Below, piece after piece: positions 6,471 to 53,296 of a stretch of 64,000 nt of DNA (position 1 is its first letter; each line of letters starts with the position of its first letter). This stretch comes from Candidatus Pacebacteria bacterium CG_4_9_14_0_2_um_filter_40_15 (GTDB lineage Bacteria; Patescibacteriota; Microgenomatia; UBA1400; PJMF01). The stretch spans positions 15,009 to 79,008 of the forward strand of contig PFRS01000001.1 in NCBI GenBank assembly GCA_002788675.1, read 5' to 3'. A program made the translations under genes and the position numbers. The notes under the pieces are model-generated. The model saw only the letters and a program-made list of their open reading frames with translations. It was not told where the DNA came from and made no database searches.

Positions 6471-6551
6471 TATTCAACACGTTAACCTAGGTGAACGTAT
6501 ACTCACTGCTGCTTATTGCTAGCAGATAAGTGATGCATACTTCATAAATGT

Positions 6552-6587
6552 AGCCCCTTGAGAAATATCTCAAGGGGCTTTTTTGTT
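6552..6587 (+). terminator. Rho-independent terminator downstream of the giant protein gene
   Basis: GC hairpin agcccctt-gagaaatatctc-aaggggct followed by TTTTTTGTT. Confidence 0.6.
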
Positions 6588-6684
6588 CCTATGCTACAAT
6601 ACACCCAAGATGAAAAACACCTCATATTGCGCTACACTCTATATATACCTAGAAAAGTAGACGGGGTAGTGTGTTAGTTTGTAC

Positions 6685-6709
6685 AAACCCCAGCCTTGGG
6701 GTTTTTTTG
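6685..6709 (+). terminator. Second hairpin with a T-run, about 20 nt upstream of the chorismate mutase start. It may be a second terminator in tandem or an attenuator.
   Basis: aaacccca-gcc-ttggggttt followed by TTTTTTTG. Confidence 0.4.
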
Positions 6710-6728
6710 TTTAGAAAAAGAAAGAAAT

Positions 6729-7001
6729 ATGTCAAAAGTTACAAATGCAATCGAAAAAAAACGAGCAGAAATTGATGCTCTTAATACCCAACTAGTTGCA
6801 CTCATTGCCAAGCGAATTGGCGTGGCAAAAGAGATTGGCGAACTCAAGAAACAAGAAAAAATTGCCGTGCAAGATCATGAGCGTGAACACTTGGTACTGA
6901 CCCAAGCTCGCACTGATGCTGCTCTCTATAACATTGATGCTTCATATATCGAGGACGTCTTCCGCGCTATTATGAAAGGCGCCCGAGACGTCCAAAAATA
7001 A
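6729..7001 (+). CDS. Chorismate mutase, AroQ class, small stand-alone form of about 90 aa
   Basis: The length and the pattern KRAEIDALNTQLVALIAKRIGVAKEIGELKK...DHEREHLVL fit the AroQ helical fold. I chose the ATG at 6729; the ORF tracker's TTG at 6696 lies inside the upstream hairpin. Confidence 0.6.
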   Translation: MSKVTNAIEKKRAEIDALNTQLVALIAKRIGVAKEIGELKKQEKIAVQDHEREHLVLTQARTDAALYNIDASYIEDVFRAIMKGARDVQK

Positions 7002-7048
7002 ATCGTATCAATGTTACAATAATCTAGAGAATACTCAGAAAAGAAATT

Positions 7049-8260
7049 ATGGGAAATACACAACTTACAATCGATCAAGTACTCAGCCGTGGTGTGGCCG
7101 AAGTACTCCCTGGCACAGACACACTTGCCAAACTCATGGGAGAGAAAAAAATTCGTGTCTACTTGGGTATCGATCCAACCGGCTCACTCCTTACGTTAGG
7201 TCATAGTGTGGTACTTCGTAAGCTTCAGCAGTTTGCTGAACTTGGCCACGAAGTTATCCTGCTGATAGGCAACGGCACTGTCAAAATTGGTGACCCAACC
7301 GGCAAGGACTCAACGAGACCAGAACTCACCAACGAACAAATCGAAGAGAACTTCAAAACCTGGAAAGAACAAGCCAGCAAAGTCCTCGATTTTTCAAAGA
7401 TTGAAATTAAACATAACGGGGATTGGCTCGACAAGCTAAACTACAGCGACATCGTCAAACTCATGGCAAAAACTACTGTACAACAGCTCATGGAACGAGA
7501 TATGTTCCAAGAGCGCCTTAAGGCCGGCCGACCAATTCACGGACACGAAATTATGTACCCACTGCTACAAGGCTACGACTCTGTGGTAATGGATGTTGAT
7601 CTTGAAATTGGTGGCAGCGACCAAACTTTTAATATGTTGATGGGGCGCACGCTGCAAAGACAGTATAACAACCGTGAAAAATGGGTGCTTTCAACGCCAA
7701 TTATTAATGGCACAGACGGAAGAAAGATGAGTAAATCGTACGGCAATTTTATTGCCTTAACAGAAAACCCTACCGATATGTATGGCAAGCTTATGTCCGT
7801 GGCCGACGGCATGATTATTGAGTACTTCCAAGTGCTTACCAATCTTACCAACAATGAAATTTCGCAGATGGCACAAGCAATCGAAGCAGGCCAAAATCCA
7901 ATGGAGTTTAAGAAACGTCTTGCCTTTACGATTACAGAAATGTACCATTCGACCGAGGATGCGACTATAGCAGCAGAGCACTTTAAAGCAACGGTTCAGC
8001 AAGGACACATTCCAGATGATCTACCAGAAGTTTCACTCGCAACAATTGGAAACATTTTAGAGGCTATCAAAGCCTGCATGCCAGATCAGAGTAACAGCAA
8101 TATTCGCAGACTTATTGAACAAGGAGCGGTAGAACTCTACTTCGGAGAAGCTTCAGTAAAGCCAAATGATCCGCTTGCCGACTTGCAAAAAAACCGTGAT
8201 GGCGTGGCACTTGATACCATTCGAGTGGGTAAAAGAAATTACTTTACAATAACTCTTTAG
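7049..8260 (+). CDS. tyrS: Tyrosine--tRNA ligase
   Basis: Class I HIGH-region motif (GIDPTGSLLTLGH) and the KMSKS motif (GRKMSKSYGN). At 403 aa, with a C-terminal S4-like region, it fits TyrRS and not TrpRS. Confidence 0.85.
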   Translation: MGNTQLTIDQVLSRGVAEVLPGTDTLAKLMGEKKIRVYLGIDPTGSLLTLGHSVVLRKLQQFAELGHEVILLIGNGTVKIGDPTGKDSTRPELTNEQIEENFKTWKEQASKVLDFSKIEIKHNGDWLDKLNYSDIVKLMAKTTVQQLMERDMFQERLKAGRPIHGHEIMYPLLQGYDSVVMDVDLEIGGSDQTFNMLMGRTLQRQYNNREKWVLSTPIINGTDGRKMSKSYGNFIALTENPTDMYGKLMSVADGMIIEYFQVLTNLTNNEISQMAQAIEAGQNPMEFKKRLAFTITEMYHSTEDATIAAEHFKATVQQGHIPDDLPEVSLATIGNILEAIKACMPDQSNSNIRRLIEQGAVELYFGEASVKPNDPLADLQKNRDGVALDTIRVGKRNYFTITL

Positions 8261-8271
8261 AGAGGAGTTTC

Positions 8272-8376
8272 ATGAAAAAAGCTACCAAACAAAAGGTGGT
8301 ACAGGTGTTTGTGATTTTGGCAATCTTGGGCATGATTGTAAGCTCATTTGCTGGGGGCCTCCTATCACTTTACTAA
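8272..8376 (+). CDS. Small hydrophobic protein of 34 aa, MKKATKQKVVQVFVILAILGMIVSSFAGGLLSLY, missing from the ORF track
   Basis: A strong SD (GAGGAG) sits 6 nt upstream of the ATG, there is a single predicted TM helix, and the ORF fits exactly between tyrS and recG. Confidence 0.4.
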   Translation: MKKATKQKVVQVFVILAILGMIVSSFAGGLLSLY

Positions 8377-8394
8377 CTTTGAGAACAGCACTCC

Positions 8395-10392
8395 ATGTAC
8401 TTTTTAACCACACAACTAGATGAAGTCAAAGGGATAGGTGAAGCCTCTTTTTTGCAGCTGCAAAAAAGAGGCTTCACCACCGTAAAAGACCTCGTTCTGG
8501 CGGTACCGCTGCGGTACGAAGATAGATCACACACTGTTGCTATTGCAGAGCTGCAACCCAACACACTCATCACCATAAAAGCAACTCTCACACAAACAAA
8601 AAATTTCTACAAAGGCCGACGCAGCATGCAGTCTGCAAAGGCTACCGATTCGACTGGCAACGTTAAGTTGCAGTGGTTTAATAACCCACACGTCATTTCA
8701 AATATTAAAGAAGGAGAAGAGTACTACATTAGTGGCACCTTCAATCCAAAGTACAAAAGTATTTCGCAACCAACGATAGAAAAAGCCTACGAAAAAGATG
8801 GCAGTGCTAAAGAAAACTTGCACACTAATCGTTTGGTACCACTCTATAGCATGACCATTCCGCTCAAGCAGGGGACGCAGCGACGAATTCTTAAAGAAAT
8901 TCTTAACAACTTACGCATTCCAGATGATCTTGAGCTTCTAAACATGCGCTTGGTTGAATCCTTTGACGAAATACATTTTCCCACCACCGTTGACCACGTT
9001 ATTTTGGCTCGAGAACGACTTGCTCTCGAGGAATTGCTCTCACTCATTCATCGTTCGAAAGAAATCAAGAAAGAGTGGCTAGAACTCCATACTGCTCCGT
9101 CATTTAAAATCCCTGCAGATGTCAAAGAGGCTCTACCTGACAGCATTCCATTTATGCTAACCAAAGCACAAGAGCGATCCACCAAAGAACTGTTAGGCGA
9201 CCTTGCCCAAACAGCACCCATGAACCGACTTCTAATTGGAGACGTAGGTTCAGGAAAAACAGTCGTTGCTGGCATCGCCTGCAACCTCATAGCAGAGCAG
9301 GGCAGACATAGCGCGATTGTGGCCCCAACCAAAATTTTGGCCACCCAACATGAAGAAACGCTGCGCACCTTATTCCCAAATGCGGCCGTGCAACTCATAA
9401 CGGGTGGCCGCAAGCCACTCGAAACCCCAAAAGAACCAACTATTTTTGTGGGCACTCATGCGGTCCTTAACCGATTGGAAAGTATTGCTCCAGCATTAGT
9501 CATCTACGACGAACAACACCGATTTGGCGTGGCACAACGGTCTAAGGCACTCAATTTGGACTACATGCCGCACATCCTAACTATGTCAGCAACACCAATT
9601 CCACGTAGTCTGATGCTAACTATTTTTTCTCACCTTCAACTAAGTGTTATTAATGAAATGCCAGCTGGCCGCTTGCCTACAAAAACGTGGTTAGTCTCTG
9701 ATTCAAAGCGGGAGAGTTCATATACCTGGATGGCTGAGGAACTACTCGCACACAAAGCGCAAGCAATTGTTGTGTGTCCCTTTATTGATCCTTCAGAACA
9801 CCTAGCATTCGAAAATGTTGCTTCAGCAACTGAAACATTTAGCGCCATGACTGAGTTTATGAAAAAAAACCACCCGGGCCTTCGCCTGGGATTACTCCAT
9901 GGTCGCCAGAAAAAAACAGAACAAAACACTACTATTGAAGCCCTCTATGCTGGCGAAATTGATATCCTCGTCACCACACCAATGGTTGAAGTTGGTTTAG
10001 ACCTGAAGCGCGCCAGCATTATTGTGATCGAAGCAGCCGAGCGATTTGGGATGGCAAGCTTGCACCAGCTGCGTGGCCGCGTTGGCCGGGCCAACCAGCA
10101 AGGATATTGTCTGTTGTTCAGTAATGCCAATAGTATGAGCAGCAAGGAGCGTCTCGAGGCATTTAGTAAAGAGAATGATGGGCTTAAACTTGCAGAGCTC
10201 GATCTTAAAAATAGAGGTTCAGGGAACCTGTTTGGAACCACTCAACATGGCTTTAGTGAACTTGAGTTTGCTGACTGGGCAAATTTGGAATTGATTGGGA
10301 AAGCTCAGAAATCATTCGAAGAACTTCCAAAGACATGGAAACCACTTTTTGAGAAATCATCGGAGTCGGGTGAAACGCCGTTAGCAAACTAG
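8395..10392 (+). CDS. recG: ATP-dependent DNA helicase RecG
   Basis: Walker A (GDVGSGKTVVA), DEQH box (VIYDEQHRFG) and helicase motif VI (HQLRGRVGR). There is an N-terminal wedge-type domain and the protein is 665 aa. Confidence 0.85.
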   Translation: MYFLTTQLDEVKGIGEASFLQLQKRGFTTVKDLVLAVPLRYEDRSHTVAIAELQPNTLITIKATLTQTKNFYKGRRSMQSAKATDSTGNVKLQWFNNPHVISNIKEGEEYYISGTFNPKYKSISQPTIEKAYEKDGSAKENLHTNRLVPLYSMTIPLKQGTQRRILKEILNNLRIPDDLELLNMRLVESFDEIHFPTTVDHVILARERLALEELLSLIHRSKEIKKEWLELHTAPSFKIPADVKEALPDSIPFMLTKAQERSTKELLGDLAQTAPMNRLLIGDVGSGKTVVAGIACNLIAEQGRHSAIVAPTKILATQHEETLRTLFPNAAVQLITGGRKPLETPKEPTIFVGTHAVLNRLESIAPALVIYDEQHRFGVAQRSKALNLDYMPHILTMSATPIPRSLMLTIFSHLQLSVINEMPAGRLPTKTWLVSDSKRESSYTWMAEELLAHKAQAIVVCPFIDPSEHLAFENVASATETFSAMTEFMKKNHPGLRLGLLHGRQKKTEQNTTIEALYAGEIDILVTTPMVEVGLDLKRASIIVIEAAERFGMASLHQLRGRVGRANQQGYCLLFSNANSMSSKERLEAFSKENDGLKLAELDLKNRGSGNLFGTTQHGFSELEFADWANLELIGKAQKSFEELPKTWKPLFEKSSESGETPLAN

Positions 10393-16612: not shown

Positions 16613-16723
16613 AGTACGTACACACTACTACTATGCATCATCATACCCTAAAAACTAGGTCACTCGCAAGGGGAGAGATGAGGAAAAAATTTGGAACTTT
16701 TTGCAGAAAATTATTGCTGAAAA

Positions 16724-17287
16724 TTAACGATACTCTTCGTTATCTTCCATATCCTTTTGAATCAGGTTACGAAGATACACAGATCGTGGAATTTTTTTAT
16801 TCTTTGCAATCCAGTCAAGGTAGTTTCCGATGGCAGGGGAGATGAAGAAGTTGAAGCGGACGTCTGCTGATTCGGCAGCATTCTCAAGAATGATATCGAG
16901 CACATCATCAATGGTGTCTTCATTGTAACCAACAATTTGCAATTTTTCTTTTTCAACACCCTTAATACTATTTGGTGGGTTTGATTTTTTGTCATTATAC
17001 AAAGCAATAACCGGTTTATGTAATGAGACAGCTACTGCAAGCTCATAACCAATACTAATATCTGGTTTAGTTGTTTCAAAGACAACTACATCGGCTGTTT
17101 TTATCCAATTCATAGATCGCTCGACATAAAACTTTGCCTCTTGAGGACTTTCCTTATCTATATCATCAAGAGTTCTACTAAGATAATGGTCTGTAACTAA
17201 TGAATGGTCAAGCTTGTGAATAAACTGACAAATTTTTTTAAAATCAGATTTATCACCATCTACCGCTGCTGCGAAGTGTACTTTCAT
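16724..17287 (-). CDS. Paralog A: DNPH1/Rcl-like (nucleoside 2-deoxyribosyltransferase family) domain fused to a C-terminal ribbon-helix-helix DNA-binding domain. The catalytic Glu is retained.
   Basis: VVVFETTKPDISIGYELAVAVSLHKPVIALY matches the Rcl/NDT core (PSLGVGYELGRAVALGKPIL), including the nucleophile Glu in GYEL. The C-terminal DVRFNFFISPAIGNYLDWIAKNKKIPRSVYLRNLIQ is a typical RHH (beta strand followed by two helices). Confidence 0.5.
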   Translation of the reverse strand: MKVHFAAAVDGDKSDFKKICQFIHKLDHSLVTDHYLSRTLDDIDKESPQEAKFYVERSMNWIKTADVVVFETTKPDISIGYELAVAVSLHKPVIALYNDKKSNPPNSIKGVEKEKLQIVGYNEDTIDDVLDIILENAAESADVRFNFFISPAIGNYLDWIAKNKKIPRSVYLRNLIQKDMEDNEEYR

Positions 17288-17296
17288 ATTAACATC

Positions 17297-18331
17297 CTAT
17301 ATTACCTTTTTAATTATTCTCTCAATATCTTTATTTAATTTTTCTCTTTTTTGAGTGACGCTATGACTTCGTTCATTAGACAAATCCTCTGCATGCAGTT
17401 TTGAAAGATTATTTGAGACAAAATGTAGATATCCAAACTGCATGCCCGAATCATGTGCAGCTTTAGCAAAATACCCTATCTCAGAATCAACTAATGAAAA
17501 ATTGCTAAATAACTTAACCCAATCTTTATTCTCAAACAAAACAGAAGGAGAATTAACATGACTCCCCTCAAAGATTAAGTCGAGATCTAGATCTGCAAAT
17601 GGATTTTTCCACTTTATAATCTCACCATTTATATAGCAAATACCACCAGTAGCCAATACCTGGTTTGGAATTATCGACTCATCAATACCACCCACTTTAG
17701 CAGTAAAAAATATTTTCTTATGATGTAATTCGCTAAGATAATGAACAAGTCTATACAAAATGTCTCCCCAAAAACTAAATTGAAGTATTAAATAAGTAAC
17801 ACTTTTTCCATTTGGTAGTGTTTCAACAGCCCAAAGAAATCTATCATTCTCTTGCCAAACTGTAGTTTCATCTGTGAAATTAAACAATCCTGATCCAACA
17901 ACAATTGCATCTGTTACCTCCAGAACATCTAACTCAAGATCATATATTTCTTGCCAACACTCTTCCTGTGACGGCAAAATATAAGTAACATGATCATATT
18001 TTTTCCCCTTAAGTGCTAGATATGAACTTATCAAAGATGCATAGTGTCGGACATAATCTATTCCAGGAAAACATTTAATGTATAGTACATTTTTAACTAC
18101 TTCAGCTGTTGGTCTCTGCCAGTTAGTCAATTTTCCACCTTTTTCGTATTTTGAAATTATGGCGGTTCTATCGTAATTACCCACCACAATAATTTCATCG
18201 TAAAGATCAGTATCAACATCCCTTATCAGATGATGCATCTTTATGTCAATATATTTCCCCAAACTTTTCCCCATACTATGCGTATCTGGATCAATCACAG
18301 TATGTGGATTTAGTTGTCTATTATTTTTCAT
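17297..18331 (-). CDS. Divergent PNP/UDP-phosphorylase-family protein (purine nucleoside phosphorylase or nucleosidase-like fold)
   Basis: YDEIIVVGNYDRTAIISKYE resembles the PNP N-terminal ADVVLMPGDPLRAKYIAE motif. DSEIGYFAKAAHDSGMQFGYLHFVSNN aligns residue-for-residue with the PNP C-terminal [26 protein letters not shown] motif, with Asn in place of the usual Asp as in trimeric PNPs. The gene is AT-rich. Confidence 0.5.
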   Translation of the reverse strand: MKNNRQLNPHTVIDPDTHSMGKSLGKYIDIKMHHLIRDVDTDLYDEIIVVGNYDRTAIISKYEKGGKLTNWQRPTAEVVKNVLYIKCFPGIDYVRHYASLISSYLALKGKKYDHVTYILPSQEECWQEIYDLELDVLEVTDAIVVGSGLFNFTDETTVWQENDRFLWAVETLPNGKSVTYLILQFSFWGDILYRLVHYLSELHHKKIFFTAKVGGIDESIIPNQVLATGGICYINGEIIKWKNPFADLDLDLIFEGSHVNSPSVLFENKDWVKLFSNFSLVDSEIGYFAKAAHDSGMQFGYLHFVSNNLSKLHAEDLSNERSHSVTQKREKLNKDIERIIKKVI

Positions 18332-18430
18332 TGAACTCTCTACTTATCATTACAAAGTCATATCTGGCAATTATACCAAATTAGCACCACAATTGTATCA
18401 TATGAAATCAAGAAGTAGTGAGGATATATT

Positions 18431-18461
18431 GATTTATAGGGTATAATTTAAGTGATATAAT
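18431..18461 (+). promoter_or_regulatory. Candidate sigma70-type promoter for paralog B, inside the AT-rich divergent intergenic region
   Basis: TTGATT (18431-18436), then 16 nt, then an extended -10 TGATATAAT (18453-18461). The ATG lies 27 nt downstream. Confidence 0.3.
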
Positions 18462-18487
18462 AAAAAACTTGTAAAATACAAAAAAAT

Positions 18488-19066
18488 ATGAAAATTTACT
18501 TCACAACATCTGCAAGAGGAGATGAAGTCATTTACTCAAATTCATTGAATATCTATAAAAAAATTAATGACTTAAACCACATACATGTTGATAATTTCTT
18601 TGAAGATATGAACGTCTCGAAGGTCTATTCTGACAATTATGAGGATAAGAAAAAACGATTTATAGATGCAACGAAAAATATCAGAGATGCAGAAATCATT
18701 ATTTTAGAGGTATCAACACATAGTTTATCAATGGGATATTTATTAAAGATGGCGCTCGAAAGTGGAAAGCCTGTAATTCTGCTACATACTCAAAATAAAC
18801 CACCTGCATTTGCTGAAGGCATTGATAATAGTAAACTTCAAATATGGGAATATTCACCAGAAGATATAAAATTTATTTTAACTGACGCAATTGATGCTGC
18901 AAAAAATGAAATAGATGTACGCTTTAACATACTCCTTACATCAGAACTATATGATTACATAAATCAACAAGCTAAAAATTCAAATATCAGTAAGTCTGCA
19001 TTCATAAGAGATTTAATTAACAACAATAAAAATAAAGACCTAGCAGCGGCATACAAAATAGAGTAA
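18488..19066 (+). CDS. Paralog B: NDT/DNPH1-like domain fused to RHH, with the catalytic Glu replaced (GYLL in place of GYEL). Probably an inactive sensor or regulator version.
   Basis: Collinear with paralog A at roughly 35-40% identity over 190 aa (for example KLQIxxY, DVRFN, SxxYIRxLI). The core is HSLSMGYLLKMALESGKPVILL, and the RHH segment is DVRFNILLTSELYDYINQQAKNSNISKSAFIRDLIN. GC content is very low, under 30%. Confidence 0.5.
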   Translation: MKIYFTTSARGDEVIYSNSLNIYKKINDLNHIHVDNFFEDMNVSKVYSDNYEDKKKRFIDATKNIRDAEIIILEVSTHSLSMGYLLKMALESGKPVILLHTQNKPPAFAEGIDNSKLQIWEYSPEDIKFILTDAIDAAKNEIDVRFNILLTSELYDYINQQAKNSNISKSAFIRDLINNNKNKDLAAAYKIE

Positions 19067-19068
19067 AA

Positions 19069-19653
19069 TTGAAAGTAGAGAAGAGCAGAAATTTAGTAGG
19101 ACTGAGCGGAATTTTTATGCAACACAGTGATTATCAAAAAAACTCACAGAATGGCTTTACTTTAATCGAGCTACTTATCGTGACTGCGCTGATGGTAATT
19201 CTCACACTCACTGTTTCAGCAATGTTCATGACGTTCATGGTTACTAATGCTCGCACAAATACAAAGAATACTCTCAAGGTTGAAGGTTCGTATGCATTGT
19301 CGCAAATTGAATTTATGCTACGAAATTCATACAAGTTAGTTGAAAATTCTGATACACAAGTGTGTCAAGGTAATATGGACCGCATTGCACTTGAATCTAT
19401 TGATGGAGGACAAACGGAGTTTTTCCTTGATACATCCGTAACGCCACCAAAGATTGCCTCAAACAGTGGTACCTATTTAACTTCTGATACTGTTCAAGTC
19501 GCTAACTTACAGTTTGATTGTTCCGAAAGATATAGTGGTGAACGATCAGTAACAATTGATTTTGACCTCAGCAAAGTTGTTCCATCAATTTCCAATACCA
19601 CTAGTGAAGAATCGTCACAACACTTCTCATCGGTTGTCTCACTGCGCAACTAA
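19069..19653 (+). CDS. Type IV pilin-like protein on the opposite strand to the rest of the pilin cluster. An alternative start is the ATG at 19117.
   Basis: Class III signal-peptide / N-methylation motif QNGFTLIELLIVTALMVIL. The start overlaps the stop of paralog B with a 2-nt gap. Confidence 0.55.
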   Translation: MKVEKSRNLVGLSGIFMQHSDYQKNSQNGFTLIELLIVTALMVILTLTVSAMFMTFMVTNARTNTKNTLKVEGSYALSQIEFMLRNSYKLVENSDTQVCQGNMDRIALESIDGGQTEFFLDTSVTPPKIASNSGTYLTSDTVQVANLQFDCSERYSGERSVTIDFDLSKVVPSISNTTSEESSQHFSSVVSLRN

Positions 19654-33870: not shown

Positions 33871-36669
33871 ATGACAGACGAAAACAACAAGCAACCAGAA
33901 AACGAAGTGACAGATGCTGCAAAAGCAGAGGAAGCTGAAACAAAGCCAGTAGAAACAATGGCAGAGGCAGTTGCTGAAGAACACCTCGAAACCGAAGCTG
34001 AAGCATTAATCGGCACCATCGAAGAAACTCGTTTTGGCCGCATGAAGTACATTTCCATTAAATCGGAAATGGAAAAGAGTTACCTCGACTACGCCATGAG
34101 TGTCATCGTCTCTCGTGCGCTTCCTGACGTGCGTGACGGTCTTAAACCAGTCCACCGCCGTATTCTTTACTCAATGCATAAAAGTGGCATTAACCACAAA
34201 AGTGGCTACAAAAAATCAGCTCGTATTGTTGGAGACGTCCTCGGTAAATATCACCCACATGGTGACTCGTCCGTGTATATGGCCATGGTCCGTTTGGCTC
34301 AAGACTTTAGCATGCGCTATGAATTAATTGATGGCCAAGGTAACTTCGGTTCCGTCGACGGAGATAGCCCAGCTGCAATGCGTTACACCGAGGCTCGCAT
34401 GGCTAAAATTTCGCAAGAACTCTTGGTCGACATCGACAAAAACACCGTTCCTTTTATTGATAACTTTGACGGTTCACTTCAAGAACCATCAGTCCTTCCG
34501 GCAAAACTTCCAAACTTGCTCCTTATGGGTGCAGAAGGAATTGCTGTAGGTATGGCAACAAAAATTCCACCACATAACTTAGTTGAAGTCTGTAACGCCA
34601 TTACTGCTATGATTGTCAGCGGTGAATCCGCTCGACCAGAGGGAAATACCTTTAGTTTACCTGACCGAGGGGCATCTAAAAAAGGTGACAACGTTGCTGA
34701 TGAAATTAAAACCATGCATGCGCAAATTGACGTGCTGCTTACCACTGATCCAAAAGAACTTGCTGGAAACTTCCAAACCGACACCACCATCGACAACATC
34801 ATGGAGCACATCAATGGTCCAGACTTCCCAACCGGCGGTATCATTTATGATTTCAACGCCATAAAAGAAGGTTACAAAACCGGAAAAGGTCGTGTCGTTA
34901 TCCGCGCTAAAGCTGCAATCGAAGAAACTAAAAAGGGTGGCTTCCAAATTATTGTGACTGAACTACCTTACCAGGTTAACAAAGCTCGCTTACTCCAAAA
35001 AATTGCCCAACTAGCTCGTGACAAAAAAGTAAACGGCATCCGCGACCTCAATGACGACTCTGACCGTAACGGTATGCAGGTTACCATCGACCTTAAACGA
35101 GATGCCAGGCCAAAGGTTGTGCTGAACAAGCTCTTCAAGTACTCTGAACTCCAAACCAGTTTCTCTATGAATATGGTGGCTCTGACCAGTGAGGGAACCC
35201 CACAACTCTTAAATATTCGCCAAATCCTAATGGAATACATTGCTCACCGCCAACTTATCGTGGTCCGCCGCAGTCAGCAAGAACTTATTCAAGCTCGTGA
35301 CCGCGCTCACATCTTGGAAGGCTTGCTCATTGCCCTGGGAAATCTTGATGACGTTGTCGCCATTATCCGCAAATCTCCCGACACCGATGCAGCTCGCGAG
35401 GCCTTAATGAAGAAATTCGGCCTCTCACATATTCAGGCGACCGCAATCCTTGATATGCAACTCAAGCGGCTCGCCGCCCTCGAACGCAAAAAAATCGAAG
35501 AAGAGTACGCAGAAGTCAAGAAAACACTCGAAACGCTTATTACCTTACTTTCAGAACCAGCACACATCCTGGCTGTTATTAAAGATGAAACAGCAGAACT
35601 TATCACGCTCTACGGAGACGAACGCCGCACCAAGCTCATCAAGGGCAAAGTTGGCGAGTTCAGTGAAGAAGACCTCGTTCCAAATGAAGAAGCTGTCATC
35701 ACCCTTACTGAGACCGGCTACATCAAGCGTCTTAACCCAGCAGCTTTCCGCACGCAATCACGAGGTGGAAAAGGCAGCATCGGCGTCAAGATGAAAGCAG
35801 AAGACATGGTCAGCACCTTGCTCACCATCAACACTCACGATAACTTATTGGTGTTTACAAACCAGGGACGCGTCTTCAAACTTCGTGGTTACGAGATTCC
35901 AGAGTCATCACGTCAGGCAAAGGGCACCGCAATGGTAAACCTTATTAACTTGCAACATGATGAACGTGTGCAATCTATCCTAGTTGTCGATCCTGAAAAA
36001 GATGCAGAAAAATTTATCTGTCTTGCCACTGAAAAAGGTTTAATTAAGAAGACCGCAGTCAAACTCTATGACAACATTCGTCAGAACGGTATTATCGCTA
36101 TCACACTTAATGATAGTGACATTCTTGTTCACGGCAGACTCACTTCAGGTGAAGATGAAATCATGATGATCACCCACGAAGGCAAGTCAATTCGCTTCTC
36201 AGAGACCGAAGTTAAAAGCTCAAATCGGGACACAAAAGGTGTCAAAGGCATTACGTTGAAGAAAGAAGATTACGTGGTCGGATTTGAAGTACTCAGTGCC
36301 TCAGAAGACCTGCTTAAATCGGCTACTGAACGTCAGCTTTTGCTTATTACCAAGAACGGAATGGGTAAGCGAACTAACCTCGATCAATACCCAGTTCAGA
36401 AGCGTTCAGGCATGGGTGTAAAAGTTGCAGAAATCACCAAGAAAACCGGCAAAGTTGCCAGCGCTCGAAAAGTAATTGCAGCTGATCACAAAGAAGTTGT
36501 GATCACTACCAAAGAAGGCCAAACCATAAAACTGCCACTTACAAAGAAGTCTATTCCAATCTTAACTCGCCCAACACAAGGTGTCATTTTAATGCGACTC
36601 AAGAAGACTGATGAAGTCGTCGCAGTGGCCCTAACCTTCAAAAAAGTTGAGGGAGACGACGAGGACTAA
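33871..36669 (+). CDS. gyrA: DNA gyrase subunit A with an acidic N-terminal extension of about 60 aa
   Basis: Active-site tyrosine context [10 protein letters not shown], a QRDR-like region (GDSSVY), and C-terminal beta-pinwheel repeats; 932 aa. Confidence 0.9.
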
Positions 36670-37036: not shown

Positions 37037-37110
37037 GGGCCTGTGGCGCAGTTGGCTAGCGCGCCTGTATGGCATACAGGAGGTCAGGGGTTCAAATCCC
37101 CTCAGGTCCA
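37037..37110 (+). tRNA. tRNA-Ala (anticodon GGC). CCA is not encoded.
   Basis: Cloverleaf read by eye. The acceptor stem gggcctg/caggtcc carries the G3:U70 alanine identity pair, the anticodon stem cctgt/acagg holds the loop atGGCat, the T-arm is agggg-ttcaaat-cccct, and the discriminator is A. Confidence 0.8.
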
Positions 37111-37119
37111 CATCCAACC

Positions 37120-38162: not shown

Positions 38163-39134
38163 CTACAAATCGGTGTGGTGCTCACGATGCGTTTTTTTAA
38201 GTTGTGGGCGAGTAACATGCGTGTAAATTTGAGTAGTGGAGATATTCTTATGCCCCAACATCTCCTGAACGTCTCGGAGCCCTGCTCCATTCGAAAGCAA
38301 GTCAGTTGCAAAGCTGTGTCGAATACCATGCGGACTAATCTTGATAGGCAAGTGAGCCTTGCGGCAATACTTGTCGACTATGCGCTGCACACTTCGAGTG
38401 GTGAGGCGCATTTCTTCACCTGAGTCAAGTAATTCAGGTTTCTTGCCTGCAAAACGCACAAAGACTGGCCGCCACTGATCTTCTCGAGAAGCAAGCCATC
38501 TATCCAACCAATCTGCTGCTCTATCACTTAAGAAAACTACTCGAGGTCTGCGACCTTTTCCAATCACACCAAATTCTCTGGATTTAATGTCAATCTGGTC
38601 TCGATTAAGAGAAATGAGCTCACTTACACGCAACCCTGTTGAGAACAAAACCTCAAGAATTGCCCGGTCTCTCAGGCCTGTTTTACTCGAGAGCAAAGGC
38701 TGGGCCAAGAGCTTTTCGATCTTTTCAATATTTAAAAACTTCATGTGCTGTGACTCAGACTTGGGTAAATCAATCTTTTCTGGGTGGAGAACTGGCACAT
38801 CGTTCTTGACTAGCCACTTCAGCATCGACCTGAGGGCAATGATGTAATACCCTTGCGTTTTCTTAGAAAGAGTTCTCCCTTTGTCATCTTCATACCGAGA
38901 GAGGTACATACGATATTCACGAACAGCATCTTGGTCAACCTTAGTAATGTCGGTAACTCCATACTCCTTTAACCAGTCAGCAAAACGACGGAGGTAATGC
39001 CCATAGTTACGCAGCGTTAATTTTGAAACATTACGTTCAACTTCTAAGTGTTCTAAAAAGACGACCATGCATGCATGCGGTTGTGTTGGGATTCCCATAG
39101 TACAGTCACTATACAGCTTTGACTCATACTTCAC
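38163..39134 (-). CDS. Tyrosine site-specific recombinase of the XerC/XerD family
   Basis: N-terminal SAM-like domain, RDRAILEVLFSTGLRVSELISL (Xer box I) and HGIRHSFATDLLSNGAGLRDVQEMLGHKNISTTQIYTHV (the R-H-R-Y catalytic residues including the nucleophile Tyr). Confidence 0.8.
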   Translation of the reverse strand: MKYESKLYSDCTMGIPTQPHACMVVFLEHLEVERNVSKLTLRNYGHYLRRFADWLKEYGVTDITKVDQDAVREYRMYLSRYEDDKGRTLSKKTQGYYIIALRSMLKWLVKNDVPVLHPEKIDLPKSESQHMKFLNIEKIEKLLAQPLLSSKTGLRDRAILEVLFSTGLRVSELISLNRDQIDIKSREFGVIGKGRRPRVVFLSDRAADWLDRWLASREDQWRPVFVRFAGKKPELLDSGEEMRLTTRSVQRIVDKYCRKAHLPIKISPHGIRHSFATDLLSNGAGLRDVQEMLGHKNISTTQIYTHVTRPQLKKTHREHHTDL

Positions 39135-48635: not shown

Positions 48636-49484
48636 CTACTCATCACCCTTGCCAACAAAAATAGCAAGCATGCGAGCAAATAGTGTTTCTTTTTCATCGG
48701 AAGCTTCTGCTTCGAACTGGGGCTTCAACTCTTCAAGTTTTGTAACAACTTGCTCGCGCTGTGGAGCAGTCATTTCAGCAGCCCTTGCCTCAATTTCCTC
48801 GAGAAGAGACATGTCATCAGTTGAATATATAGGAGTCAATCTGGCAGGATTTTTTGCATAGATTTCGCTGAAGTGCTTAGCATTTTCTGCATTCTCAAGA
48901 TCAAATCTATCAACAAAAAAAGTATTTCCTAATTTAATAATATCCATCTGTAGTGTTCCACCTTCAGCTGGCTCTAAATCAACATCAGAATCAATATAAT
49001 AGTGACCATTTGCATCATATGAAATTTCCCAAGGAACTGCCCAACCAATCTGACCAGACTCCATCTGTGCAAGACTTCCCTCATACCTCACATAATCGCC
49101 TGTTCTGGTATCAACAATTTCACCAGCGTCTTCAGACTCAGATCTAGAAGCTCTTGTCATAGGGGTGCGTTCAGTCTGAATCTCATCTACGTCAGTTTGC
49201 GCGACAGGTCTTTTATCACGCATTTGAGTAGCTGTTGCATCATCATATTCTGGCTTTCTTTTCGTGTACTCACTTGAACTAGTTGAGTAGGGACTACCAT
49301 CACTACCATGCAAAGTTGTACGAATTATAGATCCTGCGGCAGAATATGGGTTGTTTATAATACCGGTTGCATACCCCATCGCTAATTCCATTGAATGTGA
49401 TCGTTCCATGTGCATCTCTCCTGCTTGTTTCAATTTTTCCCTGTATTTCCGCTCTTTCGAGGATTTTTCACTTAATAATCTCAC
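48636..49484 (-). CDS. Hypothetical protein
   Basis: Long ORF with no recognised motif; the start is uncertain. Confidence 0.4.
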   Translation of the reverse strand: MRLLSEKSSKERKYREKLKQAGEMHMERSHSMELAMGYATGIINNPYSAAGSIIRTTLHGSDGSPYSTSSSEYTKRKPEYDDATATQMRDKRPVAQTDVDEIQTERTPMTRASRSESEDAGEIVDTRTGDYVRYEGSLAQMESGQIGWAVPWEISYDANGHYYIDSDVDLEPAEGGTLQMDIIKLGNTFFVDRFDLENAENAKHFSEIYAKNPARLTPIYSTDDMSLLEEIEARAAEMTAPQREQVVTKLEELKPQFEAEASDEKETLFARMLAIFVGKGDE

Positions 49485-49508: not shown

Positions 49509-50477
49509 TCATAGCTCTTTGTGTTTTACCAAAAAGACTGCATTCTGCAACAGACTCACAATGGTAAGTGGGCCAACTCCCCCAGGAACTGGCGTAATGA
49601 AACTCACTTTTCCAGATGAAATAACTGATTCTAAGTCGACATCAGGCTGTGGCTCTCCCACATCAATCAGAGCAGTCCCCTCGCCTAACAATTTTTCTGT
49701 AATAAGTCCAGAAACTCCTGTGGCTGAAACAATAATATCTGACTGAGTCAAACCAGCTCCGGCTTCAATTTTTTCCTGTAACTCTGTTCTTCCAAGCAAT
49801 TCACACATCACTCCCCTTCTCTTCAACTCGAAGTACAAAGGCGTTCCAAGCAAATCTGATTTACCAATAATACTAATGTTATAGGAAGAGAGTGGTTTTT
49901 GGTTTTGCTGTGAAAAGTCGTCCAAAATAGTTAAAACTGCTTGGGCGGTAGCTGGCAACACTCTGCCCTGATCTTGCCAATTGCCATGCTTAATAGCAGC
50001 CAATGACTCGGGATGTAGTCCGTCGACATCTTTTTGGACTGAAAGTGCTGAAACGAGTGAAGTCCACCAGGTGGCATACTCTTTTGCAGAAGCTGTACTA
50101 CCTTGTAATTTTTGCCAGGTTTTGCGCCATGGTTTCTGAATTATGATGCCAGTAATACTGTCATCGCCATTAAGCTGATTAATTTTTGCTTGCACAGTCT
50201 CGACTGAATCAATCAGCGAAAACTCATACACGCGGTAAGAAATGCCAGAACGCGCAGCGGCTTCACCTTTAAGGCGCGTATACAAACGACTGCCGCTATC
50301 CTCGGTGAACAAAATTGCGGCAATAGTTAGGTTCACGCCCTTTTCAAACAAGGCTTTCACTTCACGCTGCACACCTTTTTCTAGTTCCTGTGCTCGCTGG
50401 TTTCCATCGTAAATATACATAAGAACCCTATTATACCAGCAATCTTGAGGTATGAGTAGACCTATAAGTATTGACAA
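49509..50477 (-). CDS. folD: Bifunctional methylene-THF dehydrogenase / methenyl-THF cyclohydrolase (FolD-like) with an internal insertion
   Basis: KDVDGLHP, IIGKSDLLGTPL and the C-terminal GTALIDVG Rossmann segment, in FolD order. Confidence 0.65.
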   Translation of the reverse strand: MSILIGLLIPQDCWYNRVLMYIYDGNQRAQELEKGVQREVKALFEKGVNLTIAAILFTEDSGSRLYTRLKGEAAARSGISYRVYEFSLIDSVETVQAKINQLNGDDSITGIIIQKPWRKTWQKLQGSTASAKEYATWWTSLVSALSVQKDVDGLHPESLAAIKHGNWQDQGRVLPATAQAVLTILDDFSQQNQKPLSSYNISIIGKSDLLGTPLYFELKRRGVMCELLGRTELQEKIEAGAGLTQSDIIVSATGVSGLITEKLLGEGTALIDVGEPQPDVDLESVISSGKVSFITPVPGGVGPLTIVSLLQNAVFLVKHKEL

Positions 50478-50562
50478 TAAGGCTAAAATAGGCTACAATC
50501 CTCCTACTTCTGTTGCGGCTGACTCTAAACGCCAAATCAGCAGATCTTTAACAATCAATTAT

Positions 50563-50826
50563 GTAGAGAGCAAGGTGTGTGTGACTGCCCTGCACTTGTG
50601 CAGCGACCTGTCGCGCTCACCTACACTCTCTACGATGTTATATATTTTTACTTTCTTTTGAGTTGTTCGCTTTTGGCGCGCAGTGCCTTTTCCACAAAGG
50701 TGCTGCGCGCCATCAGTGAGCACACAATACAAAGGAGGTGAAAAACCAAAATTGTGCTTACACTAAATTACCAACTCACCTTAGGTGGCAGAGTTGGAAA
50801 CAGTCGACTGTTTGCAAGCTTTTTTT
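50563..50826 (+). promoter_or_regulatory. Highly structured non-coding leader upstream of the orphan gene. It contains a 71-nt imperfect hairpin, a 13-bp GC stem-loop, an orphan perfect SD (AAGGAGGTGA) with no usable start codon, a 7-bp hairpin, and an intrinsic terminator (aaacagtcgactgttt followed by a U-run).
   Basis: Inverted repeats read directly: 50563-50570/50626-50633, 50675-50687/50699-50711, 50771-50777/50791-50797, the palindrome 50798-50813 and the T-run 50820-50826. No ORF longer than 8 codons starts after the SD, apart from the in-frame read-through frame. Confidence 0.45.
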
Positions 50827-50884
50827 ACTTTTTTTCGATAACCACACATATTCCTCATCAAAATTTTTTGATGAGAAAACCTTT

Positions 50885-52387
50885 ATGGAGAAAATGATGA
50901 CTACTGAAAAAACTTTTGTTCAACTGTTAGCCGAAGATATGGGCGAAAAAAATGTCCCCGCTATTGTTGTTGAAAAACTGGAAGCCGGTGGATACGATTC
51001 TGTCCAGGTGCTACAAGAAAATCCGACAACCAAAGATGAATTTTTGGCGATGGAAGTTCCTATGCTCTGGGCGAAAAAATTGGCGGCCAAGTATGGCCCT
51101 CAAGAATCCCCGGTTCCTGTCCTGGTGCCAACGCCTGCGCCAACCGATCTCACCGATCTTGATGCTCTCATCGTAGATCAAAAGGTCGCAGAATTCTCGT
51201 GGACCCGCATCAAAACCCTGCAACGGTCTATGGTGACGACGTTGGTACAGAACTTCTTTGCCGACACCACCAGCACGACCTCAACCGGGTACCGCTTCAT
51301 GGAAGCAATGCGGACCAATACTCAACGTCCTGTGATTGCCAAAGTCCGTGGGCAAGTGAATCAAATCGCCACAGAAGTATTAGTTTGGCGCCTGATCCAA
51401 GGAACGGCCGTGATCAACGGTGATATCTTCGAATTGTCGCCGACCGAAAAATTTGTGGTTTGTGACCTTTCGGAAGTTAACACCAAAATGTTGAAGCGCG
51501 ATGTCATGTCCCCCACAGGCGGCACTCTGCCAGTTGGCGCAATGAAAAACTCATACGGGGTCACTCTGTATGACGCTGAAGGTGGTTTTGTTTTACCCGA
51601 GGCAGTACAGCAGTTTCTTGCTCTTGCCTTCAACAAAAACGAGATCAATGATCTGCTCATGCGCCAAATGGCTCGTGACTGGCGCGGCCGTGAATCCGAA
51701 GTTACTGTTGAGGAGTTGCAGTATGAGTTCCCCAAAACTTGGGAAGAAGTCACTCTGCGCGACGTTGAACAATATCCCCCCTTGGAAGTCAAGGAGGGTG
51801 AGAATCGCCCCCCTTTCGGCAACGGAGTCGTCGTTAATAACGACTTCGACCAAAGACTCCCCGGCTTATGGGCAGAAATTGAACAAAACATCCAAATCGG
51901 TCCCATGGTGAGTTTTGACGTGGACAACGAAATGTTTTACGCCAAAGCAGAACAACTTAGGGTGGGTGGTGTTCAAATCAACATCAGACGAGAAGGAAGC
52001 CGAGAAAATGTCACATTTACTGCAAAGGATGCTGAATCTTTTGGTTTTTCAATCGAGTGGTTTGGACTGAGCGCCCGTGAGGGAACCAAGATGGTGATCA
52101 ATCTCCATCGGACCGTCATGGCCCAAGTCAGTACTCCTGCTTCAAACAGCAGTGGTCTACCTTCTCCGACTCTAATCCGAGACGAGGTTATTCGCCTCTA
52201 CGATGACGGAGAACTGCGGACCCTGTGCATGGATCTTGGCATTGATTATGAAGACTTAGCAGGTGACCGCAAAAGTGGCAAAGCACAAGACCTGGTCGCT
52301 TACATGCAACGTCAAGAGCGTTTATCTGAACTGGTAAACACAATCAAACGTCAGCGCCCCCACGCAAAATGGGAAATGCACCTCTAA
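50885..52387 (+). CDS. Orphan hypothetical protein of about 500 aa, GC-rich relative to its neighbours, with a C-terminal helical domain showing an effector-associated/death-like pattern. The start is set at the first ATG after the leader terminator.
   Basis: About 52% GC against about 42% locally, with its own leader and its own terminator. The C-terminus is LRTLCMDLGIDYEDLAGDRKSGKAQDLVAYMQRQERLSELVNTIKRQRP. Confidence 0.5.
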   Translation: MEKMMTTEKTFVQLLAEDMGEKNVPAIVVEKLEAGGYDSVQVLQENPTTKDEFLAMEVPMLWAKKLAAKYGPQESPVPVLVPTPAPTDLTDLDALIVDQKVAEFSWTRIKTLQRSMVTTLVQNFFADTTSTTSTGYRFMEAMRTNTQRPVIAKVRGQVNQIATEVLVWRLIQGTAVINGDIFELSPTEKFVVCDLSEVNTKMLKRDVMSPTGGTLPVGAMKNSYGVTLYDAEGGFVLPEAVQQFLALAFNKNEINDLLMRQMARDWRGRESEVTVEELQYEFPKTWEEVTLRDVEQYPPLEVKEGENRPPFGNGVVVNNDFDQRLPGLWAEIEQNIQIGPMVSFDVDNEMFYAKAEQLRVGGVQINIRREGSRENVTFTAKDAESFGFSIEWFGLSAREGTKMVINLHRTVMAQVSTPASNSSGLPSPTLIRDEVIRLYDDGELRTLCMDLGIDYEDLAGDRKSGKAQDLVAYMQRQERLSELVNTIKRQRPHAKWEMHL

Positions 52388-52408
52388 TAACATCGTAGAA
52401 ACCTAACT

Positions 52409-52441
52409 AAAAGCCCGGTGCTTCACGTACCGGGCTTTTTT
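52409..52441. terminator. Bidirectional intrinsic terminator between the orphan gene (+) and nfo (-)
   Basis: aaagcccggt-gcttcacgt-accgggcttt followed by TTTT. Confidence 0.65.
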
Positions 52442-52471: not shown

Positions 52472-53296
52472 CTACTCCACATACCCCTTCAAAACCTCAA
52501 CATTAGCAGCATCCGGCCCATTGCCATCAAGCCCAGGCACTTCAATTACCAACGGAATATCTAACACCTCTGGCAAATTCAAAAAATGCCTAAAATTATC
52601 GACTCCAATATTCCCCTGCCCCAGGTTATCATGGCGATCCCGCCCGCTATCAAAGTCATCGCGGCTATCGTTAACGTGAATACATTTTAAGTGCTCCCAC
52701 AAACCAAGACGAGTAATTTCATCGCCAGCAGTCATCAGACTATAGCCTGCTGCATGCGCATGACAAGTATCAAAGCACCACCCCAACTGTGGGGACGAAA
52801 TTTCCTCAATTAACCAAGCAATTTCAGCTAAATCACTACACAGCTTGCCTTTTTGCCCAGCGCTGTTCTCAATCAAAAAAGTTGCATCATCGGGACTCTC
52901 AGCAATGATCTCGCGAATAGCAGCAGCAACACCCTCGCGCACTGCTTCCCACCCAGCACCCAAATGACTTCCTAAGTGCACCACGATACCCGAACCACCA
53001 ATTTTGCTATCAAACGCCATGTCGTACTTTAAGACCCGTAAAGACTTCTCTAAGAGTTCGGGATTAGGAGAGGCCAAATTAATAAGGTAGAGCGAATGAG
53101 TAAAGACTGGTCCAAAATGAGATTCAACGCGAAGTGAAGACATTTTGCTCACAGACACTTCTGCCAAATCTTTTCGCTTCCAGACCCTTGGGCTGCCACT
53201 AAAGAGTTGTAGGCAGTTACACCCGATAGCCTTTGCCCTTTCTACGGCCTTTTCGAGGCCTCCACTTGCTGAAACGTGTGCACCAATGTATCGCAT
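52472..53296 (-). CDS. nfo: Endonuclease IV (AP endonuclease family 2)
   Basis: MRYIGAHVSASGGL N-terminus and the TIM-barrel metal-ligand His/Glu/Asp pattern; 274 aa. Confidence 0.85.
   Translation of the reverse strand: MRYIGAHVSASGGLEKAVERAKAIGCNCLQLFSGSPRVWKRKDLAEVSVSKMSSLRVESHFGPVFTHSLYLINLASPNPELLEKSLRVLKYDMAFDSKIGGSGIVVHLGSHLGAGWEAVREGVAAAIREIIAESPDDATFLIENSAGQKGKLCSDLAEIAWLIEEISSPQLGWCFDTCHAHAAGYSLMTAGDEITRLGLWEHLKCIHVNDSRDDFDSGRDRHDNLGQGNIGVDNFRHFLNLPEVLDIPLVIEVPGLDGNGPDAANVEVLKGYVE

Follow-up and report, generated by a model that had tools for sequence, protein, structure and literature searches.

The subject of this work is a gene of Candidatus Pacebacteria bacterium CG_4_9_14_0_2_um_filter_40_15, a member of the candidate phyla radiation (CPR), whose product ends in the adaptor domain EAD7. 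It lies in a stretch of 64,000 nucleotides (nt), hereafter the window, where the gene order is queA, tsf, rpsB, an orphan encoding 282 amino acids (aa), folD, the EAD7 gene, nfo, the gene of an FkbM methyltransferase and that of serine hydroxymethyltransferase (SHMT), nfo being convergent with the EAD7 gene (52472-53296, minus strand). The EAD7 gene would form a transcription unit of its own, made of a promoter, a leader, the region encoding a modular protein, a box in the untranslated 3' region (3'UTR) and a bidirectional terminator. Its main features are the following:

50471-50499, plus strand: near-consensus sigma-70 promoter (TTGACA, 17-nt spacer, TACAAT; 11 of 12 consensus matches)
about 50506, plus strand: transcription start, predicted from the promoter position
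50506-50896, plus strand: structured 5' leader RNA of ~390 nt (fold z=-8.7 against shuffled sequence)
50885 and 50894, plus strand: alternative upstream ATGs, in-frame candidates
50887-50890, plus strand: Shine-Dalgarno (SD) sequence GGAG, aligned among orthologues
50897-52387, plus strand: coding sequence of 496 aa, start chosen from the orthologue alignment of SD and ATG
50912-51094, plus strand: N-terminal five-helix domain (N-domain), aa 10-70, helix-hairpin-helix (HhH)/SAM-like (AlphaFold2, AF2)
51095-51169, plus strand: Pro-rich linker, disordered in the AF2 model
51170-51829, plus strand: central conserved orphan domain, aa 96-315, defined from family alignments (GC content at third codon positions, GC3, 0.58)
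51830-52156, plus strand: swappable module, aa 316-424, defined by family comparison and of low confidence in AF2
52175-52360, plus strand: EAD7 domain, aa 431-492, four helices (Pfam, AF2)
52411-52441, both strands: bidirectional intrinsic terminator, common to the convergent nfo (dG -23.6, z=-5.2)

The EAD7 gene is real, and its open frame spans 50738-52387 on the plus strand. The start calls differ, with 500 aa from 50885 at JGI and 549 aa from the GTG at 50738 at NCBI (e.g. PIR63976.1, annotated as 'hypothetical'). In orthologues, the upstream extension carries stop codons, and their SD and ATG match the ATG at 50897; since they are closed upstream and align at this position, we retain a protein of 496 aa. 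For the same reason, the deposited NCBI start, whose model reads 53 codons of structured leader (50738-50896) as protein, is very probably wrong as judged from the alignment.

The C-terminal domain is EAD7. The Pfam model (PF19960) matches over its full length (HMM 1-62 of 62, aa 431-492) with 72.5 bits for a cut-off of 32 (E=2.4e-20) and recognizes all six family members, while AF2 places four helices at aa 428-490, at the C-terminus, with a predicted local distance difference test (pLDDT) score of 79-88. This bears out a first-pass annotation of the window, made from the sequence alone, in which the last ~60 aa had been read as an effector-associated helical adaptor. The small helical N-domain and Pro-rich linker of that annotation are likewise recovered, with a pLDDT of ~85 at aa 10-70. 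The best Foldseek match of the N-domain is weak and points to the N-terminal HhH domain of RadA/Rad51 (E ~1.5, probability 0.84). The central domain is modelled as alpha/beta and is partly confident. The full-length AF2 model was built from a six-sequence alignment and has a mean pLDDT of 59, that of the domain-only model being 66. With these two models, Foldseek searches of PDB and BFVD returned nothing significant for the N-terminal and central parts, and the domain-only model gave no fold match. In the same vein, aa 1-424 have no match among the sequence profiles of Pfam, NCBIfam, PADLOC, PHROG or PDB.

Structured leader and complementary boxes

The -35 and -10 boxes of the promoter and their 17-nt spacing are conserved in four lineages (the window and the orthologous loci L001, L006 and L009). 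The leader that follows and the 3' end contain these elements:

50549-50640, plus strand: hairpin H1, with an invariant basal stem UAACA..UGUAGAGAG / CUCUCUACGAUGUUA and a covarying upper stem (helices 2-5)
50629-50640, plus strand: box X, TCTACGATGTTA, 3' strand of the H1 base, invariant in every locus covering that part of the leader
50645-50745, plus strand: long hairpin H2, with a GGCGCGC/GCGCGCC core and a covarying tip (helices 6-7)
50716-50761, plus strand: alternative helix H3, GUGAGCAC (50716-50723) / GUGCUUAC (50754-50761), 8 pairs, 97% of cells paired
50771-50836, plus strand: H4 (CCAAC/GUUGG), H5 and U-runs (50820-50836), a weak terminator-like element (helices 8-10)
50798-50813, plus strand: H5, a perfect 16-nt palindrome AAACAGTCGACTGTTT with GC to AU compensation
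50854-50875, plus strand: hairpin H6, 10-20 nt 5' of the SD, 7 of 8 pairs compensatory, structure kept and sequence not (helix 11)
52388-52399, plus strand: box X', TAACATCGTAGA, exact reverse complement of X, located 0-15 nt past the stop in every member of the family

In an alignment of four sequences, 93% of the cells pair and compensatory changes affect 24 of the 89 pairs, against 4-9 compensatory pairs in slid alignments; none of 500 shuffles reached the observed value. The nucleotide identity of the leader core is 63-83% among the four loci, compared with 76-85% for nfo coding DNA, and the identity of the EAD7-gene protein goes down to 39%. For so few sequences, the comparison supports well that the leader is a conserved structured RNA, and makes it a candidate for a new structured RNA class. 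Rfam 15 yields only two tRNAs in the window at gathering score, the best leader match (E=0.025) being far under threshold; blastn against the window found no second copy of the leader, and a two-block DNA pattern of the leader retrieved from JGI metagenomes the identical copy L012 only.

The fold includes a potential toggle. At the base of H2, a CU-rich tract pairs with an SD-like GGAGG (50733-50737), which falls in the loop of H3; H3, with two compensatory pairs (GC to UA in L009), and the middle stem of H2 are mutually exclusive. A leader-encoded peptide was considered and rejected, the frame of GTG 50738 being stopped in orthologues and no conserved start following the SD-like GGAGG. As for the leader with terminator of the first-pass annotation, the long structured leader holds and the terminator does so only in part: the hairpin and U-run at 50793-50836 are weak (dG -10.1, z=-1.4), and the U-run is not conserved in L006 or L009.

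The succession of promoter, structured RNA, terminator-like hairpin with U-runs and open reading frame (ORF) is nevertheless the one expected from an RNA-protein pair akin to type III toxin-antitoxin systems, in which the leader ending at H5 and its U-run would be made in excess as a separate RNA that neutralizes the protein or serves as its guide or ligand. The better conservation of the leader RNA relative to the protein and the HhH-like domain, which could bind RNA, are in line with such a pair. It is improbable in view of the weak terminator with its poorly kept U-run, of a protein devoid of any ToxN/AbiQ-like match and of a leader without tandem repeats. Tandem Repeats Finder reported over the leader region only a two-copy 10-nt repeat, located in the promoter spacer, and the leader contains no direct-repeat families; a ToxI-like repeat RNA is thus rejected. 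Finally, the complementary box in the 3'UTR argues that leader and ORF act on one molecule.

This complementary box X' lies within a conserved 3'UTR consensus, TAACATCGTAGAAACCTAACCAAAAGCCC. In each locus spanning both gene ends, the 12-mer X is found exactly once more, as its reverse complement, and the two boxes are exact in all six protein clusters of the family, down to 25% protein identity; the chance expectation is ~0.008 per 64 kb. The X:X' duplex has a computed energy of -15.3 kcal/mol. When full-length mRNAs are folded, it belongs to the minimum free energy structure in two of four orthologues and comes within 1.1-2.9 kcal/mol of it in the other two; in mini-constructs, its pairing probability ranges from 0.37 to 0.99. 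Within H1, box X has another pairing partner, likewise invariant, which competes with X'. A three-way constraint on X, its H1 partner and X' would explain why none of these strands ever varies. The stem of the 3' terminator (52411-52441) covaries among loci, and this bidirectional terminator stands as first annotated.

A perfect 13-nt inverted repeat also links the leader (TGAAAAACCAAAA, 50739-50751) to the variable module (TTTTGGTTTTTCA, 52039-52051). As it is A/U-rich and lies in a non-conserved module, we treat it as probably due to chance.

Evolution and neighbourhood of the gene

Word-indexed searches and an exhaustive phmmer search define a family of six protein clusters (P0001, P0002, P0003, P0006, P0007 and P0008), the latter search giving only five matches among 1.84 billion representatives. 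A profile search with the family alignment A8 added no member. Only the EAD7 domain was matched in GTDB representative genomes, always in Chloroflexota proteins, and matches in IMG/VR were also confined to it. The nearest EAD7 sequences share at most 55% identity and are named Chloroflexota or Anaerolineae; the EAD7-only database search returned proteins of less than 140 aa only, so that a long core protein could not show up there. One of these sequences belongs to a canonical EAD7 carrier of 1570 aa, used for comparison, in an Anaerolineales metagenome-assembled genome (L014, 7091-11803), where it combines a double Zn-ribbon, an AAA_16 NTPase, EAD7, an FHA domain and a Ser/Thr kinase and adjoins a Type ISP restriction-modification gene.

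Comparison among loci shows that the EAD7 gene diverges several times faster than its neighbours, with protein identities of 39-75% against 79-93% for nfo. It also shows, at the level of aligned sequences, that the gene is a mosaic whose four modules, among them a cassette of ~110 aa, were exchanged independently. P0001 and P0002 are ~95% identical up to aa 312, unrelated over the next ~110 aa and ~75% identical in EAD7; at the nucleotide level, no similarity remains between the window and L001 across 51810-52154. This swappable module, unrelated in P0002, is missing in P0007 and common to P0003, P0006 and P0008. The central domain is common to P0003 and P0007 (70-87%), whose N-domains (25-38%) and EAD7 (27-47%) are not; in P0006 and P0008 it is the swappable module that is common (52-60%), the central domain being dissimilar (17-25%). 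Synonymous divergence (dS) between the window and L001 reaches 0.82 for the N-domain and 0.81 for nfo, as opposed to only 0.23 for the central module; this low value relative to ~0.8 in the flanks suggests either a recent exchange or synonymous constraint. The N-domain is under strong purifying selection (omega 0.03).

Such variation takes place between conserved borders. Two loci from one sample (L007 and L008) have identities of 91% in the 5' flank, 63% in the ORF and 100% in the 3' flank. Many contigs are only 1.6-1.9 kb long and end in the conserved UTRs, probably because divergent alleles coexist between near-identical flanks. The locus is of interest in itself, since it illustrates cleanly, in nature, how a mosaic gene evolves one module at a time while the non-coding flanks are conserved. 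Besides, an identical EAD7 protein is present on at least 24 contigs from many samples.

The position of the gene is fixed. It stands immediately upstream of nfo in every orthologue with flanks (L001, L006 and L009); folD on the upstream side is confirmed in the window and L001 only, and the FkbM gene downstream in the window, L001 and L006. All 24 contigs read that carry the exact protein show the folD/nfo/FkbM arrangement, in one and the same orientation.

In composition, the region 50885-52387 has 49.1% GC compared with 42.5% for the window, i.e. 6.6 points more, and the sliding-window GC maximum coincides with it. Among the 58 ORFs of the window, the EAD7 gene ranks first for GC (z=2.1) and GC3 (0.51 for a mean of 0.36, z=2.6). 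The elevation announced by the first-pass annotation is thus genuine, its value of about 52% is not, and the gene is less isolated in this respect than was said, with SHMT (48.0%) and nfo (47.2%) close behind. The excess comes from the central and variable modules and from EAD7, GC3 being native in the N-domain (0.41). In four of four orthologues checked, GC is also above that of their own flanks. Synonymous codon choice is ordinary (rank 9 of 58, z=-1.2), so that the codon-usage analysis suggested along with that annotation does not single out the gene.

These data bear on the proposal that the gene was horizontally acquired. Recent acquisition is not supported by the sequences compared, because synteny with nfo and raised GC are shared among orthologues and codon usage is ordinary. 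Genomic islands are recognized by an atypical composition together with a patchy, non-syntenic spread; here, the GC z is ~2 and synteny is shared. A conserved housekeeping context, which the first-pass annotation had named as evidence against its own view, is found in part, i.e. as synteny beside nfo across lineages. It is then highly improbable that the locus is a recent foreign defence or toxin island, or a DNA-level element using its 12-bp inverted repeats as recombination sites (either an inverton or a domesticated cassette of which they form the terminal repeats). Such an origin would account for the excess in GC (6.6 points over the window) and GC3, the nearest EAD7 sequences coming from Chloroflexota, the exact 12-13-bp inverted repeats that bracket the ORF, the modules exchanged between lineages with a low dS in the central one, and the many contigs that break at conserved flanks. 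It is opposed by the place beside nfo in every lineage with flanks, by a GC excess common to these orthologues, by the ordinary codon usage, by the single orientation on 24 of 24 contigs, and by the left repeat being part of a covarying RNA hairpin within the transcript. Moreover, the sole recombinase in the 64 kb is an Xer-like gene 12 kb off. On present evidence, the inverton was also rejected, the assembled contigs being all in one orientation (24/24) and no invertase lying nearby beyond the Xer-like gene.

This gene (38163-39134, minus strand) encodes a Xer-type tyrosine recombinase with Phage_integrase and SAM_1 domains, and adjoins tRNA-Ala(GGC) (37037-37111) and an HD-domain ORF. Closer to the EAD7 gene, the flanks of folD appear as a variable gene slot. 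In the window, it holds the 282-aa orphan ORF (48636-49484, minus strand) between rpsB and folD, which has no match in Pfam, PADLOC or PHROG and is absent from L001. L001 instead carries, between folD and the promoter of the EAD7 gene, a gene for a 1508-aa protein with a Fic/DOC domain (E=2.9e-5; 4920-9446, minus strand), which the window lacks.

A possible conflict effector under RNA control

At roughly even odds (probability about 0.5), we propose that the gene encodes a lineage-restricted, EAD7-tagged effector or sensor of a conflict system, with an mRNA under the control of an RNA switch in which the 5' and 3' UTRs pair. EADs couple effectors homotypically to NTPase cores, and EAD7 belongs to the effector-recruiting class (PMC7159879, PMC8195603). 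The protein would be the effector or sensor arm of a system directed against phages or engaged in interactions with a host or competitors. EAD7 would give homotypic coupling, either through self-assembly or by docking onto a core that bears EAD7 and is encoded in another part of the 1.19-Mb genome, while the swappable module would be the specificity determinant and the payload (aa 1-424) may be a new effector. A bistable RNA would control synthesis post-transcriptionally, with box X pairing either in H1 or with X' and a second toggle downstream between the H2 middle stem and H3. The alternative leader fold would be reached only by a full-length mRNA that includes the EAD7-coding end and the 3'UTR. 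The relation to defence or toxins put forward at first pass is in line with the fast divergence, the module shuffling and the adjacent variable slot; it is weakened by the lack of a recognizable defence locus.

Several observations weigh against this proposal. A six-frame hmmsearch detected no second EAD7 in the 64-kb window or in L001, and no STAND, vWA, MoxR or GTPase core occurs in these 64 kb or in the 21 kb of L001, the P-loop matches belonging to PilB. With no second EAD7 or NTPase core nearby, the 'EAD principle' is unverified here. PADLOC matches neither the gene nor its locus, and PHROG gave no match. No recognizable enzymatic fold or signalling domain is fused to EAD7 over aa 1-424, and the AF2 models are of moderate quality only (pLDDT 59 and 66). 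The protein is not hypervariable within the species, as its exact sequence recurs on at least 24 contigs. EAD systems have been described in multicellular prokaryotes (PMC7159879, PMC8195603), which CPR cells are not. On the RNA side, the evidence consists of four full-length and two to three partial sequences; boxes X and X' are invariant and, because they never vary, their pairing has no covariation support. Finally, X:X' pairing is predicted to leave the SD-AUG region essentially as accessible as before.

Part of these data would fit a lineage-specific housekeeping or regulatory nucleic-acid-binding protein, in which the HhH-like domain binds DNA or RNA, EAD7 is a generic oligomerization bundle and the UTRs serve autoregulation, for instance through binding of the protein to its own leader. 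Its place between folD and nfo, fixed wherever flanks are available, a protein sequence identical across many samples, the lack of any defence-library match or nearby partner, the resemblance of the N-domain to the HhH domain of RadA/Rad51 and the strong purifying selection on it (omega 0.03) all go in this direction. Conversely, a divergence 3-8 times faster than that of the adjacent nfo, with wholesale swap or loss of a module, is atypical of housekeeping genes; the family is limited to six clusters among 1.84 billion representatives, and EAD7 is otherwise found on conflict-system proteins. Taken together, we regard this explanation as rather unlikely.

A bolder version of the conflict effector under RNA control is a self-contained conflict module of a kind not described before, in ultra-small CPR bacteria, which would unite an orphan effector, an exchangeable specificity cassette and an EAD7 assembly handle without NTPase core; its own leader would gate its expression or activity via a three-way RNA switch that comprises the pairing of 5'UTR and 3'UTR, the leader possibly acting as RNA ligand or antidote for the HhH-like domain. 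We consider it unlikely and put it forward as speculation.

The setting of the EAD7 gene adds to its interest. The EAD adaptors owe their computational definition to the large immune systems that multicellular prokaryotes build around NTPases; the present EAD7 protein has been long retained in a 1.2-Mb genome of episymbiont type with no core in sight. Such a case either extends the 'EAD principle' to solitary proteins or points to a hidden partner.

Three further observations in the window concern other loci. At its start (42-6470, plus strand) lies the ORF of a giant protein of at least 2142 aa, which may extend past the window edge. The protein combines a trypsin domain at the N-terminus with six Laminin_G_3 repeats, receptor-binding domains of clostridial-neurotoxin type and DUF2341, and has weak PADLOC matches to LmuA/Avs1b via the protease; it probably serves the episymbiont in interactions, either at the surface or as a secreted protein. 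At 16700-19100, a low-GC patch (30-36% against 42.5%) lies just 5' of a pilin-like gene (N_methyl motif). Its ORFs include a nucleoside 2-deoxyribosyltransferase-like gene, a weak PNP_UDP-like match and a 192-aa protein with a faint NikA-like match, and the patch may be an acquired segment. Finally, GyrA (33871-36669, plus strand) is long (932 aa), and its DNA_topoisoIV match, split into two stretches, suggests an insertion after ~aa 252.

Comparison with known systems

To conclude, two features of the locus are new, namely an undescribed structured leader and a conserved 5'/3' complementary box; the payload, for its part, is without known homologue. On the protein side, the closest known systems are the EAD7-tagged effectors of NTP-dependent conflict systems (Kaur, Burroughs, Iyer and Aravind 2020/2021; PF19960). 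As in these, a small, all-helical EAD7 at the terminus, whose score far exceeds the Pfam threshold, is attached to a fast-evolving, non-homologous payload within modular, shuffled architectures. Unlike them, our protein lacks a nearby VMAP, STAND or GTPase core with a cognate EAD7, its payload is without known effector fold, its position is fixed and syntenic among housekeeping genes, and its host has a 1.2-Mb CPR genome instead of being a multicellular actinobacterium, cyanobacterium or member of the Chloroflexota. The vWA-MoxR-VMAP/STAND NTPase loci differ from it by their adjacent NTPase core gene.

With type III toxin-antitoxin systems (ToxIN, CptIN, TenpIN), the locus shares a structured RNA directly 5' of a putative effector gene with a terminator-like hairpin in between. 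It departs from them in having neither tandem-repeat RNA nor ToxN-like endoribonuclease, and in that leader and ORF appear to be one transcript. Riboswitch and attenuator leaders are similarly long, conserved and built of covarying helices, and offer alternative pairings, of which at least two mutually exclusive sets exist here (X with X'1 at 50549-50570 or X'2, the box X' at 52388-52399; CAGUGAG with GUUCGCU or UGCUCAC). In contrast to these leaders, no Rfam match, ligand-pocket architecture, canonical terminator or sequestering platform is recognizable, and a competing strand is located as far as 1.75 kb downstream.

Another comparison is with the icaR mRNA of Staphylococcus aureus, in which a 3'UTR box pairs with the SD region and blocks translation (PMC3868564). 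In our case, the target is ~250 nt 5' of the SD, inside a competing hairpin, and the ribosome-binding site is predicted to stay unaffected. What both mRNAs have in common is a short 3'UTR box complementary to their own 5'UTR, and the pairing predicted here is thermodynamically competitive. If it takes place, the invariant 5' and 3' boxes would be a rare bacterial case of long-range UTR-UTR control.

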